A stretch of DNA of 64,000 nucleotides. Origin: a virus (lineage: Duplodnaviria > Heunggongvirae > Uroviricota > Caudoviricetes). The stretch is taken from the IMG/VR virus record IMGVR_UViG_3300009149_000021, one strand, 5' to 3'. A model generated the notes under the pieces. That model made no database searches. It saw only the letters and a list, made by a program, of their open reading frames with translations, and was not told the DNA's origin. Positions 1,222 to 53,993 of the stretch are shown one piece after another. How positions within the stretch are numbered: position 1 is the stretch's first letter; each line of letters starts with the position of its first letter. A program made the translations under genes and the position numbers.

Positions 1222-1845
1222 ATATTTAACTCCCGAAAAAAAGATGGGAAAGGAAAAGAAAGATAGTGTGCTGCTACGCCAAAGGGGACCTCGCCCTTAC
1301 CAATTACGGGGTGGCTCAGTACTTTGTTCCTCGGTCTAACTCGTTCCCCTCATTGAAATAGGATTATGGTCGTTATTGTATCATTTTATGTTAATTTGTA
1401 ATATACAATTCGACTAGCCTTTTTATCCATTGATCAGATGGATTTATTTCAGTTTCCGTTTCTCTCCACATTAAGTATCGGAAACAACTTAATGCTTCAT
1501 CGTTCGGGATACGCATGGGCCCCACTCTTTAAAGGATGGCTGCTTCTAAGCCAACCTCCTATCTCTCTTTTCCTTAATTTCAGTTAAAAGAAAGGGTGGG
1601 TGTTATTTCCCTTTCTTAATAGCGCGTACTAACGAAGTTTTTGGTCATAAACAAAGGAGAGATTTTCTCCTTCCCCATCCATCTAACACCCTTCGATAGA
1701 TTTCTTAGGGAAATCCCAATTCTTGGAATATACCAATTCTTGGTTTCATTTCCCTATTAATTGTTGGCCGAGCTGATGTGGGAAACCACATACCCTATAG
1801 GGGACTGGGGACATCCTATACTGTCATTCCACAGCTCGAAATATT

Positions 1846-1922
1846 TGGTAGGCCACCCCCGACTTGAACGGGGTACCCCATCCTTAAAAGGGATGTGCTC
1901 TAGCCAGATGAGCTAGTGGCCC
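1846..1922 (-). tRNA. tRNA-Lys (anticodon UUU), CCA encoded
   Basis: Minus strand GGGCCAC-TA-GCTC..GAGC-CATCC-CTTTTAA-GGATG..CCCCG-TTCAAGT-CGGGG-GTGGCCT-A-CCA; cloverleaf folds by hand. Confidence 0.75.
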
Positions 1923-2164
1923 AATTTAATTCAAAGGGGATGGGAATACTGCAAACCCATCCCCAGAAGGAGAACACATGCCCAATGAGATCACAAAAAA
2001 CATCTGACATGTGAGTTAAAAAACTAGATCGGACAAATCTAGTTTTCGTTTAATAGAATAGAGGCGGTGCAGCCTCTAAAAACCCAATACACATTCTCAG
2101 AAACATTGAAAAAAAGAACATAAATTCGAATAATTCCTTTAGCACCATCAGAAATTACTCTAAG

Positions 2165-2255
2165 ATAAACACATTGGAGACTCGAACTCCATGGCAGCCG
2201 TCCTGCTGTGTCATCCTCAAATAAAAGGATGGGATGCAAAAATAAAATCCCATCC
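2165..2255 (-). ncRNA. tRNA-like/structured RNA element (T-arm TGGAG-TTCGAGT-CTCCA plus 9-bp hairpin)
   Basis: Minus strand has a canonical T-arm preceded by GCAG-GACGG-CTGC and GGATGGGAT...ATCCCATCC hairpins; no matching acceptor stem found. Confidence 0.25.
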
Positions 2256-3426
2256 AGTCCCAAGAGTATAAATTAACGCCACCACGACCGTCGTGGTGCT
2301 AACGAAATTTGAGAAGGGGGAGAGGCCCGTAACGTTAAGGTGTAGTCTTCTTAACAGGAAGTAACCCTAACATGCCACTGCTCCCCCTAAAAGTGAAGCC
2401 TGAATAATGGGAAGTACGCCACCACTTCCTATGAAACTTTTAACTGCATGAGATGAGAGCATTTCATCCTGCAAACGCCGTCTCATAGCGAAATAATTGT
2501 CAGGTCAAAAATTAGGTGTACATTGGTTTTAATTGTTCATACACCATCAATAATCGCATACAGCTAATCCAAGTGTTCGTCTGCATCCAAAAGATCCACA
2601 AACTTTCGTTTGACACAACCAGCATAATAATTTGCTCTTTTTATTATACGGTGTAATCAGGACAATTAGCACTTGGAAATTACCATAAATGACCTCTACC
2701 CCTGCCATTTCTGGGGAGTATTCATTATTCAGACTAATTATTAATTGGACAGCTTTTGTAACGAAGATTAATCAACTTGCTTGACCGCTGTCCATAATTG
2801 TTGGTGGAGGCGAGGGGACATTGTTGTTAGCTGCATTTTTTTGATAAACATTATATGCAGATCGGACTGTCGCATCATCCCTAATGAGGGAGTCCTCTCG
2901 CTCAGTCTCTCACGGTGAGATAAATGAATCTCTTCCGCCCTGTCGCCTGTGCCCAGGCTTCCAAGTCAATCAGAGAGGATTTAGTGCTCGCATATTACTA
3001 TGCGGCTCAACCCAATACATCGATTGAACCCCTGTCCAGAGCATCTTACTCATAGCCGGATACCACAATCTTCTTCACAGATTTAATCTTAAAACTCTAA
3101 ACTCCCTGTGACCGGATTTTTGAGTCAGCATCAGATTAATTTTCGTCCAGAAATTATCTAAATCATTTCCAGCTTATCTGTGTAGTGTTACGCCCAATCC
3201 AAATCCCACAGTTAATTTGGTTGAACGAGCGGCTTACGCCGCCATTTCTAATTCAGAATAGTCTGCGATTAGTTTTAAAGGTGAGAATTTTTAACGGTGA
3301 TTCCTCAACACCGGATTGCATCCAATTACTTTCTAACCCCTGTCGAAACCATTACGCCCCCACATTTTAACGAAAAATATTCATCTACATTAAATTTATA
3401 TATGTAGTTTTACTCAATTAAAAAAT

Positions 3427-3822
3427 CTACCAGAGATGATCATAAATCATAGTAATCCTAACTTTATCATTATCATACCTGGAAATAAGATTAATCAATT
3501 TATACAATTTCATATTTAAAAATCTTTTACCATTGAATTGAAGTCCATATGCACTGCTGATATGACCATCAAACATTCTTATTATTTGTTGATCAATATT
3601 ATATGCTGGTATATGGTGTCGCCATTTTTCTGTCAAAATTTGTTTAAGAGATTTACTATGATCACATCTCATAAAATCATCCAGTTTCAAAATATTTTCT
3701 GAGACCGCTCCCAACGAAGGTCTCACAGAATAATTACAAAACTGAATTAAAATCTTAATGAATTTTTCTTTTGCTTTATTATTATTTTCAAATTTTATAT
3801 TTATTATTTCCATGCCTGTCAC
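3427..3822 (-). CDS. hypothetical small protein, multigene family (M-E/K-I-x-N-I-E/K-F N-terminus)
   Basis: ORF 131 aa; N-terminal MEIINIKFE and HHIPxYN motifs shared with the next three ORFs. Confidence 0.5.
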   Translation of the reverse strand: MTGMEIINIKFENNNKAKEKFIKILIQFCNYSVRPSLGAVSENILKLDDFMRCDHSKSLKQILTEKWRHHIPAYNIDQQIIRMFDGHISSAYGLQFNGKRFLNMKLYKLINLISRYDNDKVRITMIYDHLW

Positions 3823-5419: not shown

Positions 5420-5764
5420 AAAAAACTCCGTCTATAAAATATTTTTATCTATAAAAAAATTATTATTTTCTAAATCAGAAAAAGGGAGAAAATCTAAATT
5501 AAATAGACTTTCTCCCTCTCAAACATAAACCAGTTTATCTGTTGCTGGTGAAAACTGGACAACACCCAATAAGATAAATGAAAAGAGACTCATTCGTCAG
5601 AGTGATTCAGATAATTATGGGATCTGTAAAACCACCGCTTTAATTTCGAGCCAAAACTGGTAAAAGCCGAATTGTGTGTTTCCTAACACATTATTCATTA
5701 TAGAAGTAACTCTGATCGACCACTACTTTTCAAAAATCCACGTTTCTGTTACTAGTTGCAATTA

Positions 5765-6232: not shown

Positions 6233-6865
6233 CTACGCTTTCCATTCAATCCACCACATTGTTTCCCCTGTCATGTTTAAACACTTCCACTGGCACCCTT
6301 CATCGAATCCTTTTTTATACATGTGCCAATGACTAAAAAACCATTGCTTTGGTTTATACTGTTGCAATAGATAACTTAATGCTTTCCTCGAAAAATCATA
6401 TCCATAATCATTTTTAATTTCAAACTCTGTAGGACATGTGTGTGAAATCATTACATCTATCTTTAATTTTGTATCTAATTCTTCAATTTCCCCATTACTA
6501 ATAACTTCTTCTGGAAACCAATCGACTCCCATTTTTCTCATATATCTATCAATCGAATGTGCTCCTCCAAAAAACATAAATGTTTTTCCTAGGATTTCCA
6601 TTGTCGAGCCGCGCTTCATATAAAAGACATTGGGATGTATTTCATTGTTATCTAATTTTCCCAGAGACCAGTGATCTTCGTGATTCCCATCACAGAAAAA
6701 GATTTTAGTATCTTTATTTTTCAATCTTCCAATATCATACTGTTTCAATAATGGATAATATCCAAAGTCACCAGTCGATATTAATATGTCTGGTTTTCTT
6801 TTATTTATAAAAATATTTAGATATTCCCACCATGCATGCACATCACCTATTATCAGAATTTTCAT
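6233..6865 (-). CDS. calcineurin-like metallophosphoesterase
   Basis: GDVH ... GDF ... GNHE motifs in order. Confidence 0.7.
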   Translation of the reverse strand: MKILIIGDVHAWWEYLNIFINKRKPDILISTGDFGYYPLLKQYDIGRLKNKDTKIFFCDGNHEDHWSLGKLDNNEIHPNVFYMKRGSTMEILGKTFMFFGGAHSIDRYMRKMGVDWFPEEVISNGEIEELDTKLKIDVMISHTCPTEFEIKNDYGYDFSRKALSYLLQQYKPKQWFFSHWHMYKKGFDEGCQWKCLNMTGETMWWIEWKA

Positions 6866-6990: not shown

Positions 6991-7770
6991 CTAGAAGTCA
7001 AACACCTGCCCCTTCTTCACAAATCCAAGAAATCCATCTACTTCTGGAGTGAAATTATCTGGAGCTTGATCATCATAATGAACCAACCACATTTTTGATT
7101 TGGTTTCTTCTGGCAATTCTCTTCTCAAGTCATCATAATGTGCATGGACTCTAGACTTAATAAATTTTCCATCTTTACTCACCAACGTTTCACAATCATG
7201 AATTATTATATCAGACATATTATAAAAATCGTGTATCTGTTGTGGTTGATGTTGGGTATCTGCTGTCATGAAAATTGTTTTCCCATTTACAGATACTAGA
7301 CATCCAAAACATGGTACATAAGCATAGCCATCCATAACGTGACACATCTGAACTGGTCTAAATGTCGCCCCTTCCCATTCAAATGTTTCATTAATTTCAA
7401 TTGGTTTGACATCAAAATAATCTCTTAAACTTAGAATCTTCCCTTGGACGGATTTCATTCCCTGTCTAAATGTTGCCCATATATTATCTTCCATATGTGA
7501 CATACAATATAGATTTGGTCTTTCCTGAGTTGGATCGAAATATTTGGCAAATCCCATCCATTCGAGACCAAGCATGTGATCCCCATGATAGTGACTGATA
7601 TAAATATCATCAACATCTTTCGCACTCATGCCTTGCTCATTTAATGCGTAAGCAAAAGATAACCCACAATCGAATAACAATTTTCTCCCAGAATCACTTA
7701 TGAAGAGAAAGTTTGTTTGCCAATTTTTCATTGAAAAGTATGTTCCAACTCCTATTGCCATCAGTTTCAT
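6991..7770 (-). CDS. metallo-beta-lactamase-fold hydrolase (RNase Z/PhnP-like)
   Basis: ISHYHGDHMLGL = HxHxDH MBL motif; sits next to the tRNA cluster. Confidence 0.6.
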   Translation of the reverse strand: MKLMAIGVGTYFSMKNWQTNFLFISDSGRKLLFDCGLSFAYALNEQGMSAKDVDDIYISHYHGDHMLGLEWMGFAKYFDPTQERPNLYCMSHMEDNIWATFRQGMKSVQGKILSLRDYFDVKPIEINETFEWEGATFRPVQMCHVMDGYAYVPCFGCLVSVNGKTIFMTADTQHQPQQIHDFYNMSDIIIHDCETLVSKDGKFIKSRVHAHYDDLRRELPEETKSKMWLVHYDDQAPDNFTPEVDGFLGFVKKGQVFDF

Positions 7771-7802
7771 TTTTTTATTTTCCTCTTATTTGTTTTGATG
7801 AG

Positions 7803-7873
7803 GCCAGATGGATTTTAACCATCGTCTCCGGCATCCTCGCGCGGTATCCTAAACACTAGACGATAGCCTCATA
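7803..7873 (-). ncRNA. non-canonical tRNA-like element X1
   Basis: 7-bp acceptor-like pairing GAGGCTA/TGGCCTC and T-like arm GATGG-TTAAAAT-CCATC; D/anticodon arms do not fold canonically; no CCA. Confidence 0.25.
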
Positions 7874-8410: not shown

Positions 8411-8540
8411 AAAGAGACTTATATGAAAAAGTATTTTAATTGGGTGATGTTGGATTTGAACCAACCACTTTTTGTCTATTCAACAAATATTCTACCATCT
8501 GAATTAATCTCCGAAGTAACTCTTTCTACCACTGCTTTGT
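8411..8540 (-). ncRNA. tRNA-like repeat unit A (candidate Y-RNA-like/YrlA-type ncRNA)
   Basis: Minus strand carries the conserved AGCAGTGGTAGAAAGAGTTACTTC (D-arm-like) motif plus T-arm GTTGG-TTCAAAT-CCAAC, but no complementary acceptor stem; ends with CATATAAGTCTCTTT shared with the other units. Confidence 0.4.
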
Positions 8541-50249: not shown

Positions 50250-53200
50250 TTATGAACATTTGGAATATCCACAACTGAGACATTCCATGCAACCTTCCTG
50301 GATGGAAAGTGATTTCTCTTTACATTTGGGACAAATCTGCATCCCCTCTGTTGTAACATCATCCGTATCGGTAAACGAATATTTTAACATTTTTGCTATA
50401 GCATCAACCACGGATGTCACTGGAATTGGTTTTTTGGTAAACTTATGCCACATGACATCATTGGATGCAATATTTTCTAATTGATTTATTATCTTTCCAA
50501 GTGGTATATGGTAAGACAAACAGAGCGAAATCAATCTTCCGATTGCTTCAGTATAACATCCCAGCTCACTTCCAGATTTTCCAACATTCAAAAATATCTC
50601 CAATGGTATTCCCTCTTTAGAATTGACAGTTATAAATGCATCGTATTCTGGGAATTTGAATTTTTCAGTGAAACCAAAAAGTTTCTCTGGTCTGGAAACA
50701 TCTTTTAATTCAATTTTTGGTTTCTCTTTTGAAACACCACACAATATTCCTTCTCTTTTACAACCGGAACGATATACAGTTATTCCCTTACAACCGGACT
50801 TCCATGCAAGCATATAAAGTTCTTTCACATTTTCTACTGTGGTATGATTACCAAGATTAACAGTAGAAGAAATACTATTATCTATATATTTCTGAATCAA
50901 ACCTTGCAGTTTAACTCGCTCTTTCCAATTAACTTCATATGCTTGTGGAAAGAAATTTTTTATTTCTTCATCAGATTCAACAATCCTCATTTCCTTGGCA
51001 TATTTTATTGCATTGTGCCAGATTTCGAACGTTTCTTGTTTTCCTGATATATTGGTCTTCCTCGTATATGTCCTCATGAATACTGGTTCTATCCCAGAAC
51101 TACAATTAGAATAAATCATTTTATTATTTTTAATATTATAAATTCCACCACCGATAATTGATAATGAACCAGTTGGTGCAATTGTATTTACAGTGACATT
51201 TGCAATCGGTTTATCTTTCGGAATATTAAATTTTTCAAAAAATGGTGTACTATAATATTTTTCAGTATCAAAATCATTAACAATTATTCCATGCTCGGTA
51301 GCCAAATTTTGTGATGTTATATAAGATGTAGTTCTAAATTCTTCGAGAAGTTCTTTTAGAAATTTTGTTGTATCAGCTCCCATGTTGTATCCAAATCTCA
51401 TCAACCCCAATACATCACCCAATGCAGAAATTCCCAAACCAATTCTTCTATATTTTTCTGCCTTCTCGCGAATTTCTGGAAGCGCAAACATGTCATACTT
51501 CAACTCATAATCTAGAACGGCATTCAAGGCTAAAATTCCAACTCTGATGGTGTTCCTGAAACCTTCAAAGTTGAATGTGTTATCCACATAAAATTTATCA
51601 AGCATTACTGCACCAAGTACGCACTGCTCATATTTTGCCATTGAAATTTCACCACACTGCCTTTGATATATATTATAGTGTGTAACAGCACTTTTTGACT
51701 CTTTTATTTTTCCCAACACCGTTCCAACTATATGATTATCATCAACTGTAATATTATAAACATCCTCATAACCATCAAATTCAACAGAAACAACTTTATG
51801 ATTAACATTTTCAACAACATCTTCTTTGATTGCATTCCAAGAAAATGATCCTTCAGACCATCTATACATACCACTTGGACGATATTCTCGTTTAATACGA
51901 TTAATTAAACCATCATATTTACTATACTTTTCATTGTATGGTATCTTAAAAGCATCTTCAAAATATATTTTCCATTCTTCAAGACTAGGAAATCTATCCA
52001 ATCTAATAGAATAATCTATAAATTCATTATATATTTTGTGAAATTTATCCGTTGAAACTTTATTTGCTTTTAATAAATATTTTTCCGATTGATATAATGC
52101 AGCACATGTACTTGAACAAAATGCCCTTTCACGTTTTGAATATTCGACCCAAAAGTTAGAATTACATTTTTCACAAACTCTCAAACAATAACATTTCCCA
52201 TCAGCCACATCAAACTTAATAACCAAATCCGAATTATCTTTATTTTGAATATACCAACGATATGCAATAATTGAATGATACCTTTGTATCGACCATTCTT
52301 TTTTATAACCAAATATCTCAAAGTTTAATTGATCAATTAAATCATATGTTTTATATAATTTGCTATTTCTACAATAACCTTTTTCACCAGCATGTTTTCT
52401 CCATTCAGATTTTGTTATTGGTCCATTGTATCCATTTAAACATTCTTTAATTTGATCTAGATGCTCATCTTTTGAAACATCGATAGCTTTTCCATTTTTA
52501 AATCCAGATGTACTTTCTGACATTTTTTTACGATATTTTTGTCTATTTTCTTCAGTTGTTTCATTCCACCAATTTTGCATTGGATTATTTTTATTCATGT
52601 GTAATCTGTTATGTTCCGAATGCTTCATCAATCTAAGATTCTCAATTAAATTATTTCTAGGATTTCCATCTATATGGTGAACAACCATTTTATTTTCAGT
52701 ATTGAAAATTTTGTTATCCAAATCATTATAAAATTGATAAACATACCTGTGTTCAATCTTAGAAAATTTAACATTATCTATTTTTGAAATATTCCAATAA
52801 GAAGTTTTTTTATTAAAACTTTTAGTCGAAACAAACAAACTATCTCCAGCAGTTAAATCCTTAGCTTCACACTCAGATAGATTTCTCAAAATAAACTTAT
52901 GATTCTCAGTACATCTAACAACAGAACCATCGTCCAAAGTCACCTTCAATATCTTTTTATTTCTACCAGTCAATCTAGGATTTCTACCTGTTTTAATTTC
53001 AACAAAACCTGTTTCTTTATTTAATGAATACACTGGAACATCTTTTTCTTCATCTACTAATTGTTTAATTGGGACCATACCCCTGCCATCAGCAACAGAA
53101 ATCAACATATCACCAGTTAAACATGGATTTACACCTTCTGGTGTGCTCTCTGGATGGAAACAACCTGGATTATAATTTACCATTCTATCTTTAAATATTA

Positions 53201-53993
53201 TCCCAGGCTCTGCCCAATCCCAAGCATTCGTACAAATTAAATCAAATATTTCTTTAGCCTTTATCATTCTTTTAATTGACGCTTTATCATTCTCAAACTT
53301 CAATTCCCAATCAGAATCATTCTCAACTGCTTTCATAAAATCATCACTAATCATTATACTAATATTGGCACCTTTAATATAATTTTCATCTTGTGTTTTC
53401 GATTTTATAAACTCCACAACATCTGGATGTGTGCAATCGAGAAAAATGATAGATGCTCCACGCCTACCGGCATGCCCTATTGTGTTTGTTATTTCTGAAT
53501 AAAGATTTGCAAATGGAACAACACCCGCAGTTGACTTAGCTGCGTTGTTTACCTTGCACCCATCTGGTCTTAAATTGTTGAGGTGCAGTCCATTGCCATA
53601 ACCATATTTTAAAACATGAGCATGGAGACTCGCAAATTTCATGATAGATTCCATACTATCGTCTGGGCCACCAGTATATAGACAATTGCTGAGTGTGAGA
53701 TTCACACTCTCGCCTCTTTTTCTAGCAAAATGAAGTCTTAAAATTCCATGTAAAATTCTACCACCTAGAATAAATTTAAATCCTTTCATAGAATTATATA
53801 ATTCAGCCTTGGAAACATATTTAGTTTCCAATTCGCCAGACAAAATGTCCCATGCTTCAGGCGGAGAAAGCAAGGTATCTTCATCTATTAATCCATATTT
53901 TGTTGACCATGTTTTTGAAACAAATTCATCCCCATTATAGAAATCCATAATTTTTTTAAAACGCTTGTGTTTTGTAATATCAACAGACATCAA
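50250..53993 (-). CDS. nrdJ: ribonucleotide reductase, class II (adenosylcobalamin-type, NrdJ-like), interrupted by an intein
   Basis: Extein junction restores NP|CGEI (class II NPCGE active site) followed by QCVLGAVML; C-terminal Cys4 zinc-ribbon CPKC...CLSCGYSKCS typical of many class II RNRs. Codon 1 in the ORF track is TTG; ATG follows at 53990. Confidence 0.8.
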   Translation of the reverse strand: MMSVDITKHKRFKKIMDFYNGDEFVSKTWSTKYGLIDEDTLLSPPEAWDILSGELETKYVSKAELYNSMKGFKFILGGRILHGILRLHFARKRGESVNLTLSNCLYTGGPDDSMESIMKFASLHAHVLKYGYGNGLHLNNLRPDGCKVNNAAKSTAGVVPFANLYSEITNTIGHAGRRGASIIFLDCTHPDVVEFIKSKTQDENYIKGANISIMISDDFMKAVENDSDWELKFENDKASIKRMIKAKEIFDLICTNAWDWAEPGIIFKDRMVNYNPGCFHPESTPEGVNPCLTGDMLISVADGRGMVPIKQLVDEEKDVPVYSLNKETGFVEIKTGRNPRLTGRNKKILKVTLDDGSVVRCTENHKFILRNLSECEAKDLTAGDSLFVSTKSFNKKTSYWNISKIDNVKFSKIEHRYVYQFYNDLDNKIFNTENKMVVHHIDGNPRNNLIENLRLMKHSEHNRLHMNKNNPMQNWWNETTEENRQKYRKKMSESTSGFKNGKAIDVSKDEHLDQIKECLNGYNGPITKSEWRKHAGEKGYCRNSKLYKTYDLIDQLNFEIFGYKKEWSIQRYHSIIAYRWYIQNKDNSDLVIKFDVADGKCYCLRVCEKCNSNFWVEYSKRERAFCSSTCAALYQSEKYLLKANKVSTDKFHKIYNEFIDYSIRLDRFPSLEEWKIYFEDAFKIPYNEKYSKYDGLINRIKREYRPSGMYRWSEGSFSWNAIKEDVVENVNHKVVSVEFDGYEDVYNITVDDNHIVGTVLGKIKESKSAVTHYNIYQRQCGEISMAKYEQCVLGAVMLDKFYVDNTFNFEGFRNTIRVGILALNAVLDYELKYDMFALPEIREKAEKYRRIGLGISALGDVLGLMRFGYNMGADTTKFLKELLEEFRTTSYITSQNLATEHGIIVNDFDTEKYYSTPFFEKFNIPKDKPIANVTVNTIAPTGSLSIIGGGIYNIKNNKMIYSNCSSGIEPVFMRTYTRKTNISGKQETFEIWHNAIKYAKEMRIVESDEEIKNFFPQAYEVNWKERVKLQGLIQKYIDNSISSTVNLGNHTTVENVKELYMLAWKSGCKGITVYRSGCKREGILCGVSKEKPKIELKDVSRPEKLFGFTEKFKFPEYDAFITVNSKEGIPLEIFLNVGKSGSELGCYTEAIGRLISLCLSYHIPLGKIINQLENIASNDVMWHKFTKKPIPVTSVVDAIAKMLKYSFTDTDDVTTEGMQICPKCKEKSLSIQEGCMECLSCGYSKCS
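51657..53123 (-). mobile_element. intein with HNH homing-endonuclease domain inside the RNR active-site region
   Basis: Starts CLTGDMLISV right after NP; HNH motif HHIDGNPRNNLIENLRLMKHSEHNRLH; block-G-like VYNITVDDNHIVGT; host protein resumes at CGEI. ~489 aa. Confidence 0.7.

Follow-up and report, generated by a model that had tools for sequence, protein, structure and literature searches.

The window analysed here is a 64,000-nucleotide (nt) stretch of the genome of a virus of the class Caudoviricetes (IMG/VR record IMGVR_UViG_3300009149_000021), and this work concerns a non-coding island at positions 1230-3420, together with one RNA encoded in it which copies the GTPase-associated centre (GAC) of 23S rRNA and is referred to below as the GAC-mimic. 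The island is a cluster of co-oriented, minus-strand genes for stable RNAs in an AT-rich large phage, and contains a transfer-messenger RNA (tmRNA) gene carrying an intron, a tRNA-Lys(UUU) gene, several tRNA-like or hairpin modules and the 322-nt GAC-copying RNA; all features described in the island lie on the minus strand. The initial annotation had depicted this block as free of open reading frames (ORFs) and elevated in GC within a genome dense in minus-strand genes, which was borne out on each point. The longest ORF within 1230-3420 has 74 amino acids and a TTG start, and none of the ten longest short ORFs matched Pfam at E<=0.1; the G+C content is 0.36-0.46 in the island vs 0.22-0.29 in both flanks, and 26 of the 26 window ORFs of at least 250 amino acids are on the minus strand. 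Minus-strand ORFs flank the island at 670-1221 (183 amino acids) and 3427-3822. The 183-amino-acid protein is an ORFan among 5.8 billion clusters and has no Pfam domain; no related loci were found in IMG/VR through both flanking proteins, and the only contigs with the 183-amino-acid protein (JGI 3300024262; ENA ERZ27249621, 116.8 kb) are 100% identical over the island. Comparison with Rfam, which the initial annotation had suggested, returned the tmRNA, the tRNA and a weak large-subunit (LSU) rRNA match; a search of the island, the intron and the GAC-mimic at E<=10 gave no group I intron, RNase P, 6S, SRP, Y RNA, ROOL, GOLLD or riboswitch. The suggestion that the block might be a large phage non-coding RNA was right in spirit, the block being a string of RNA genes.

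The GAC-mimic of the window extends over 1252-1573. The 5' half of this 322-nt RNA includes the 23S-like segment, a 38-mer at 1560-1523, that had been reported as a 40-mer at 1527-1566; the location had to be corrected but the likeness is real, with 35 of 36 bases identical to bacterial 23S rRNA (E=6e-13). The segment aligns to positions 1097-1144 of the Rfam model LSU_rRNA_bacteria (24 bits, E=1.4e-5), over helix 43 (H43), the 1082:1086 lone pair and the start of H44. In our own numbering the match corresponds to E. coli 1054-1089, within the 58-nt GAC (1051-1108) to which uL11 and thiostrepton bind. The order of the element is the closing helix, G1056, H43, UUUAAAGAGU, a stem-bounded insert, UUUG, the H44 tip, ACA and the return strand of the closing helix. 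The closing helix, the equivalent of H42, has 15 bp formed by GGAAAAGAGAGAUAG (1559-1573) and CUAUCUUUCUUUUCC (1266-1252), and was detected independently in an inverted-repeat search (repeat I1). H43 with its 1067 loop and UUUAAAGAGU occupy 1524-1558, equivalent to E. coli 1056-1090. They are followed by a domain inserted in the H44 5' strand (1284-1523), which measures 240 nt including its basal GGGG/CCCC stem and 232 nt without it, and by the 3' conserved half (1252-1283), where UUUGGCGUAGCAGCACA, the H44 tip with the 1095 loop (equivalent to 1091-1103), precedes the 3' strand of the closing helix. Both conserved halves, the 15-bp helix and the insert stem are thus found on one strand; the closing helix, H43, the insert stem and the H44 tip all appear in the minimum free energy (MFE) fold of 1573-1252 (z=-3.3). 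Of the ribosomal GAC, the RNA keeps H43 and its 1067 loop, the lone pair 1082:1086, the tip of H44 including the 1095 loop and, at the junction, the pair G1055-C1104.

The resemblance to rRNA is confined to 36-43 nt and ends abruptly on both sides, without continuing into H42, H44 or their neighbours. The other parts of the island, compared with full 16S and 23S rRNA by blastn-short and Smith-Waterman, showed no similarity above shuffled controls. Two candidate likenesses, 2480-2445 to the peptidyl-transferase region and the 9-mer CGAGAGGAC in the intron, were discarded as being at chance level against shuffles. Since the similarity stops on both sides and no other rRNA likeness occurs in the island, the segment is not the remnant of an rRNA gene, and the captured or degraded rRNA put forward in the initial annotation is rejected, the 23S similarity ending after 36 nt.

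A blastn search retrieved the same ~40-mer from unannotated DNA of Pseudomonas pf16, UNO-G1W1, Astolliot and Milchi, Xanthomonas XacN1 and Aeromonas 4_4572, and more diverged copies from the Rak2-like jumbo phages GAP32, CBB and BF and from the Erwinia pEa_SNUABM phages, so that the cultured carriers infect Pseudomonas, Xanthomonas, Aeromonas, Cronobacter, Pectobacterium, Serratia and Erwinia. A pattern describing the 5' half led to the recovery of 12 IMG/VR loci and 35 metagenome loci. In 40 of the 47 distinct loci found in this way, a second block, CCCUUUGGCGUAAUAGCACAC, was present 53-296 nt downstream; from its information content we estimate a chance rate of ~0.002 matches per locus for the 3'-half regular expression. 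It comprises the tip of H44, the 1095 loop included, and C1102-A1103-C1104. The reverse search, with the 3'-half pattern alone, yielded 109 IMG/VR loci, and nhmmer located an H43-like 5' half 21-619 nt upstream in 96 of 103 loci found by the 3' half. The two-part design is present in about 100 distinct phage or metagenome loci, often on contigs of 60-500 kb, and continuous H44 is absent from every member, a domain of 21-619 nt (only 21-57 nt in some) being placed between U1090 and G1091. Among 185,579 species-representative bacterial and archaeal genomes, the 5' pattern matched once, in a metagenome-assembled genome of a DPANN archaeon, where it is probably genuine rRNA. Six further loci (L033, L039, L053, L054, L056 and L059) were excluded from the family; they continue as GUGGGUAAUACCUCACCC, have no phage-type 3' half, and look like genuine rRNAs reading GAGUGGG at H44, possibly from DPANN archaea or similar organisms. 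Rfam 15 holds no family for the element and gave only weak LSU matches, and a full-text literature search, with subscription journals outside its scope, found no description of it. Taken together, these results establish a large, phage-specific family of GAC-mimic RNAs, which apparently has not been described so far.

The conservation of the family was studied in two alignments. The first (A2) contains 40 distinct elements, is gapless and is partly fixed by the 5' search pattern. The second (A4) contains 57 distinct elements from the 3'-half search, whose 5' halves were collected with an nhmmer profile built from A2 and a filter, [GA]A[GA]TG, at 1087-1091; the filter itself imposes invariance on 1087-1091, A1088 among them, so that it is not an observed property there, and the 3'-half positions A1101, C1102, A1103 and C1104 of A4 are within the search pattern. 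The proportion of paired cells was 89.8% in A2 vs 74.2% in column shuffles (0 of 500 reached the observed value) and 40-55% with slid partners, and 88.3% in A4, where shuffles gave 66.7% (0 of 500) and slid partners 35-53%. Two-sided changes were seen at 12 of 12 pairs of the closing helix in A2, with four to six pair types each, and 11 of 12 covary in A4; the sequence of this helix differs at every locus yet stays complementary. The insert stem covaries at 3 of 4 pairs in A4 and does so also in XacN1 and GAP32 (UGC/GCA and GUC/GAC). In the H43 part of A4, pair 1058:1080 occurs as UA (24), AU (20), GC (11) and CG (1), pair 1057:1081 as AU (50), CG (5) and GC (1), and the lone pair 1082:1086 as UA (28), CG (16) and AU (8). 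Positions outside the filter at which A4 shows no variation are G1059, U1060, G1063, G1071, C1072, A1077, C1079, A1084 and A1085; A2 shows none at A1103, and a conservation of at least 90% at A1101, C1102 and C1104. The conserved core nucleotides are, as we take it from L11-RNA crystal structures, those that build the tertiary core of the GAC, and the loop tips 1067-1070 and 1096-1097 are more variable than in rRNA. The alternative allowed for in the initial annotation, that the block might be decayed filler DNA, does not fit a segment that makes up one half of a discrete RNA whose closing helix covaries and which occurs at about 100 unrelated phage loci.

RNAs of this type occur in well over a hundred phages, mostly within arrays of tRNA genes, and the copies of the cultured phages likewise sit in tRNA clusters or next to them. 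In a first set, 26 of 40 loci contain tRNAs, all on the strand of the element, with some 17 elements at a distance of 0-25 nt from one. In a second set, tRNAs occur within 5 kb in 51 of 78 loci, 26 elements are at most 25 nt away from one, and all 289 of the 289 tRNAs are co-oriented with the element. The element is inside the annotated tRNA clusters of pf16 and UNO-G1W1, and that of XacN1 has its own terminator; the window copy has its nearest tRNA 275 nt away and ORF 670-1221 30 nt downstream. All-against-all blastp of ORFs within 4 kb revealed no shared neighbour protein family beyond closely related phages, and the lack of a protein family common to the neighbourhoods indicates that the RNA is an autonomous module. 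The GAC-mimic is a discrete, structurally constrained and phage-specific RNA which copies the GAC and resides in tRNA arrays.

Variation within the family concerns mainly the insert. In one subfamily the insert contains a conserved stretch, (A)GUR..GAGGCACCCC-[GNRA-type hairpin]-GGUAAGGC.GAAU, with a covarying hairpin, and the 3' part of the window insert (~1326-1289) belongs with it, being similar to those of L001, L004, L010, L036, L058 and others. Sarcin-ricin-loop or kink-turn readings of this segment were considered by eye and dropped as unsupported. Twelve variant GAC-mimics (L064, L089, L101, L103, L116, L120, L123, L127, L130, L133, L140 and L154) have an extra hairpin right after GCAGCCA, in the H43 3' strand and ahead of the remaining motif, which looks like a second insertion site of the family. 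In Milchi (locus L007, 2528-2659) and other GenBank records, a small 'hypothetical protein' coding sequence (CDS) is annotated on the opposite strand across the GAC-mimic, probably as a gene-calling artefact. GAC-mimics are thus currently either unannotated or covered by spurious CDS, and could be mistaken for rRNA contamination.

The second major gene of the island is a tmRNA gene of the intron form (2802-3361), 560 nt long as a gene and 356 nt when spliced. Rfam RF00023 matches 3353-3021 with 74.5 bits vs a gathering score of 47, the match comprising neither of the two acceptor strands nor the 3' half of the T-arm, and ARAGORN missed the gene on the unspliced sequence. The missing ends are visible by eye, GGGGGCG starting at 3361 and CCCCUCGCCUCCACCA ending at 2802. 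When 3022-2819 (204 nt) was deleted in silico, ARAGORN called a complete 356-nt tmRNA that has both tRNA-like domains and ends in CCA (...CCUCCACCA); the acceptor pairing GGGGGCG/CGCCUCC, as read from the sequence, has a G3.U70 wobble. The tag reading frame, GCA...UAA, at 3234-3266 (spliced positions 96-128, ARAGORN), encodes ADYSELEMAA, for which ARAGORN reported 'tag not identified' among known tags. The 204-nt group I-type intron (2819-3022) separates nucleotides 6 and 7 of the tmRNA T-loop, and its excision in silico restores the T-loop UUCAAUU. The boundaries are UUCAAU/CGAU...CAAUG/U and the predicted spliced junction is ..GGGGUUCAAU/UCCCCUCGCC..; P1 could be formed by the exon-final U and a G in the intron segment GGUUGAGC, and a G is also the last base of the intron. 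An intron had been among the options of the initial annotation, and one exists, but it sits in a tmRNA gene which had not been seen there and not beside the 23S-like segment.

Intron-form tmRNA genes are known in 883 instances, mostly from Bacillota, with subsite 7 as the principal site and with boundary rules that call for a U at -1 paired with G in P1 and a 3'-terminal G (PMC11915505). The window intron agrees with these rules and with the principal subsite. Rfam Intron_gpI (RF00028) remained silent on it even at E<=10, and P2, P3, P5, P7, P8, P9 and R/S-like elements were recognised by eye only. Its core is homologous (nhmmer E=3.8e-11) to a ~217-nt unannotated insert in the P22-like coat gene of podovirus MW202674.1; as this insert splits the coat gene, the intron appears to behave like a mobile self-splicing intron. 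In MW202674.1 itself (locus L060, ~1995-2211), the coat gene is annotated as two CDS with a spurious 39-amino-acid 'hypothetical protein' between them, and the ~217-nt gap is probably an unannotated self-splicing intron. We treat the tmRNA locus as a putative new member of the known kind of intron-form gene, unusual in being phage-borne. A weak nhmmer match (E=0.11) to the 5' part of the window tmRNA was also observed in L032/L051 (~5424-5618 and 2842-3036), a contig that carries a GAC-mimic as well and that may hold another phage tmRNA.

The remaining modules of the island lie between or beside these two genes. The tRNA-Lys with anticodon UUU, already noticed in the initial annotation, is at 1846-1922 (ARAGORN; Rfam tRNA 55 bits). 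Its anticodon arm (CCAUCCUUAAAAG, plus strand; 1878-1890) is 92% complementary over 13 nt to CUUUAAAGGAUGG of the GAC-mimic (1527-1539), probably by chance, although the two RNAs are neighbours. A structured RNA candidate, module X (2397-2735), has a 13-bp closing helix (repeat I4, 2723-2735 with 2397-2409) which is used in its MFE structure (z=-3.3, 0 of 100 shuffles folding as well); it showed no rRNA similarity in the comparison with 16S and 23S. A tRNA-sized, tRNA-like module at 2315-2388 combines an 8-bp acceptor-like helix with a long arm bearing the 7-nt loop CUGUUAA and has no T-arm (single-sequence fold, z=-2.35). Another module resembles the top half of a tRNA in its single-sequence fold (2162-2217), with a long acceptor-like helix, a small hairpin and a canonical T-arm, and lies in a larger region bounded by the inverted repeat I2 (2294-2309 with 2132-2147). 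Its T-arm-like hairpin, UGGAG-UUCGAGU-CUCCA at 2191-2175, supports the T-arm-containing element that had been placed at 2165-2255. Neither of these two modules was called by ARAGORN or Rfam. The hairpin was also considered as the 3' half of an intron-split tRNA, but ARAGORN with introns allowed finds only tRNA-Lys; by eye, with no systematic search made, no matching 5' acceptor strand was seen upstream. The perfect 10-bp hairpin announced at 2021-2047 is indeed present (2020-2029/2037-2046; repeat I6), is A/U-rich, is followed by U residues and is possibly a terminator or processing hairpin. Two small multi-hairpin modules occupy 1839-1768 and 1756-1706 (z=-2.3 and -2.8). The second holds two CCAAGAAUUGG hairpins (repeat D2), in which CCAATTCTTGG occurs twice, at 1716-1726 and 1733-1743; the direct repeat given at ~1726-1758 therefore does have two copies, although its position was off by about 10-15 nt. 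Overall, the modules between the tmRNA and the GAC-mimic are G+C-rich, contain long-range helices, have no Rfam match and are described from single-sequence folds. No homologues of module X or of the modules labelled Y, V and Z were found by blastn in GenBank phages or by nhmmer in 1.26 Mb of phage tRNA-array loci. The motif UUCGUUA(G) was noticed by eye three times at the 5' edges of structured modules (2305-2298, 1637-1630 and 2766-2760) and could be a processing or promoter-proximal signal of the phage.

Elsewhere, the genome has genes of a large phage, encoding an RNA polymerase beta'-like subunit, an NAD-dependent ligase, an SbcC-like protein and at least seven tRNAs. Two Rfam tRNA matches on the minus strand, at 7799-7870 and 8441-8513 (43.0 and 43.8 bits), were not called by ARAGORN and lie within the second tRNA cluster, at 7.8-8.9 kb. 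Beside it are a gene for a 259-amino-acid metallo-beta-lactamase-fold protein (6991-7770, minus) with a precomputed Pfam match to Anti-Pycsar_Apyc1 (PF23023) and, adjoining this gene, a Metallophos phosphoesterase (~6233-6865); these Apyc1-like and Metallophos genes are possible anti-defence genes. The large subunit of ribonucleotide reductase (50250-53993, minus) is interrupted by an intein with an HNH endonuclease domain, which gives the window another mobile self-splicing element in addition to the tmRNA intron.

What the GAC-mimic does can be approached from the pattern of its conservation and its surroundings. We regard it as somewhat probable that this cargo of tRNA arrays is a trans-acting decoy of the ribosomal GAC, whose ligand would be uL11 and the stalk or else an immune effector directed at the GAC. 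For the island as a whole, which is shown to be an RNA-gene cluster, our judgement is evenly balanced on the best explanation, in which the GAC copy would be a trans-acting decoy for a GAC ligand, most likely uL11. The GAC-mimic would be co-transcribed with the tRNAs, and RNase P and 3' processing would release it as a stable small RNA, as suggested by its spacing of 0-9 nt to tRNAs on either side. The released RNA would adopt the fold of the ribosomal GAC and compete in trans with ribosomes for a GAC-binding ligand. The ligand that we favour is uL11, possibly with the uL10/bL12 stalk base, because it is the protein-binding tertiary core that is conserved rather than the factor-contacting loop tips, and because the helices whose minor groove is read by uL11 can covary freely. 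The expected effect would be on factor-dependent or RelA-dependent signalling by the ribosome during infection and, more speculatively, could result in uL11-poor ribosomes or blunted RelA signalling. Several points weigh against the decoy hypothesis. Every member of the family is known from sequence alone, and the search patterns contribute part of the conservation in each alignment. H44 is interrupted, so that the three-dimensional fold and the affinity for uL11 are predictions; the factor-contacting tips 1067-1070 and 1096-1097 vary more than in rRNA, and this makes it less likely that the factor-binding face is strictly mimicked. A very abundant RNA would also be required to titrate an abundant ribosomal protein, and the position of the window copy, distant from the tRNA and close to the downstream ORF, would allow a role in cis there.

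The main rival, which we hold to be possible though clearly less likely, is a decoy against a toxin or anti-phage effector that would cleave or modify the ribosomal GAC, comparable to the phage tRNAs that stand in for host tRNAs, or protect them, when anticodon nucleases attack. It draws on the residence of the element in tRNA arrays, which are viewed as anti-defence cargo (for example in PMC12803027). The family is, moreover, phage-specific and spread over unrelated phages, and the retention of a tertiary core while the helices drift would fit recognition by shape. tRNA-Lys(UUU) is a classic target of anticodon nucleases, and the island carries this tRNA too. On the other hand, no anti-phage system directed at H43/H44 is known to us; the ADP-ribosyltransferase Tre23, which is the one toxin we know to modify the GAC, acts between bacteria, and the loop tips, which would be the likely sites of an enzyme, are the less conserved positions. 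It is rather improbable that the GAC part is a mere folding scaffold or processing handle for a functional variable insert acting as guide, aptamer or protein platform. The wide range of insert lengths and the conserved segment with a covarying hairpin in one subfamily speak for such a role of the insert; family-wide, however, the GAC part is conserved and the insert is not, inserts can be as short as 21-57 nt, and a mere scaffold would have no need to keep the single-stranded tertiary-contact nucleotides of rRNA invariant.

A cis-regulatory, rRNA-mimicking leader that controls the 183-amino-acid ORF (670-1221) is suggested by the end of the window element 30 nt upstream of the start codon, but appears very unlikely, since downstream of the element other phages have a tRNA or, in XacN1, the element's own terminator, no downstream protein family shared by the loci was found, the 183-amino-acid protein is itself an ORFan without Pfam domain, and the only Rfam leader match, S10-Clostridia at 1434-1508, reaches 14.5 bits vs a gathering score of 35.1. 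Still harder to sustain is a functionless piece of host 23S rRNA, captured and decaying, or a mobile intron or intervening sequence with rRNA exon flanks. The 35/36 identity over H43 and the location of the insert within an rRNA-like helix would agree with it, but this reading is refuted by covariation and distribution: beyond the abrupt ends of the similarity, the flanks form a helix whose sequence is different in every phage and always complementary, the members share features foreign to 23S rRNA (GUG-stem...stem-CUUUGGCG and A1101), the elements of Pseudomonas phages carry G1058:C1080, unlike the U:A pair that we presume to be the host type in Pseudomonas, and the element is essentially absent from the 185,579 prokaryotic genomes. 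As to the replication or packaging origin raised in the initial annotation, we give it hardly any credence. The block is non-coding and rich in hairpins and short repeats, as an origin might be, but cumulative GC skew falls steadily without a turning point, the repeat search of the island found only short two-copy families of direct repeats and no iteron-like multi-copy repeats, and RNA genes on one strand account for most of the block.

The decoy hypothesis, if true, would define a previously unrecognised class of viral RNA for host takeover or anti-defence, operating by rRNA mimicry, and the family would point to uL11, the stalk and the GTPase centre as a target that many unrelated large phages manipulate or protect. 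The carriage of GAC-mimics by cultured phages makes the hypothesis directly testable.

With respect to known systems, the window tmRNA gene shares with the intron-form tmRNA genes of the Williams laboratory database (PMC11915505) the subsite 7, the U-G pair in P1, the terminal G and the restored T-loop, but it is phage-encoded whereas the known ones are bacterial, its intron is shorter (204 nt vs a published mean of 293 nt) and escapes Rfam Intron_gpI, and the closest relative found for this intron splits a phage coat gene. It would thus extend the intron form of the gene to viruses, and standard tmRNA finders miss such genes. ROOL and GOLLD are, like the GAC-mimic, structured non-coding RNAs of phages, of unknown function and often beside tRNAs; the GAC-mimic has no Rfam match to either, and its core is unrelated to theirs, being a copy of the rRNA GAC. 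The tRNA arrays and tRNA-like decoys of phages occupy the same niche, with the same strand and processing-like spacing, and also copy an RNA of host translation; the GAC-mimic differs in copying a domain of rRNA and in having no anticodon, acceptor-CCA or T-arm features.

The closest model is the GAC of 23S rRNA itself (E. coli 1051-1108; H42-H44). H43 and the junction nucleotides are nearly identical to it in the phage element, the H44 tip GCGUAAUAGC and the G1055-C1104 closing pair are retained, and the lone pair 1082:1086 covaries in the phage family as annotated in the Rfam LSU model. Unlike the GAC, the phage element is a stand-alone RNA of 108-706 nt and not a part of rRNA, has an arbitrary helix of 9-15 bp instead of H42, accommodates an inserted domain in the H44 5' strand (GUG-stem...stem-CUUUG), has an A at position 1101 that pairs with U1090, and is freer at its loop tips. 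The autoregulatory leaders of ribosomal protein operons (for example L10, L1 and L20) offer a further parallel, as they are likewise non-ribosomal RNAs that reproduce the rRNA site of a ribosomal protein. These leaders, however, are cis-acting 5' untranslated regions of cellular ribosomal-protein mRNAs with a loose resemblance to rRNA, whereas the GAC-mimic is a discrete gene in tRNA arrays without a ribosomal-protein gene, its neighbours being tRNAs, terminators and unrelated ORFans. Viral mimicry of translation RNAs is known for tRNA, and to our knowledge RNA mimicry of ribosomal-protein sites is known only from the cis-acting mRNA leaders of cells. A conserved, phage-specific copy of an rRNA centre would be a third case beside these two.

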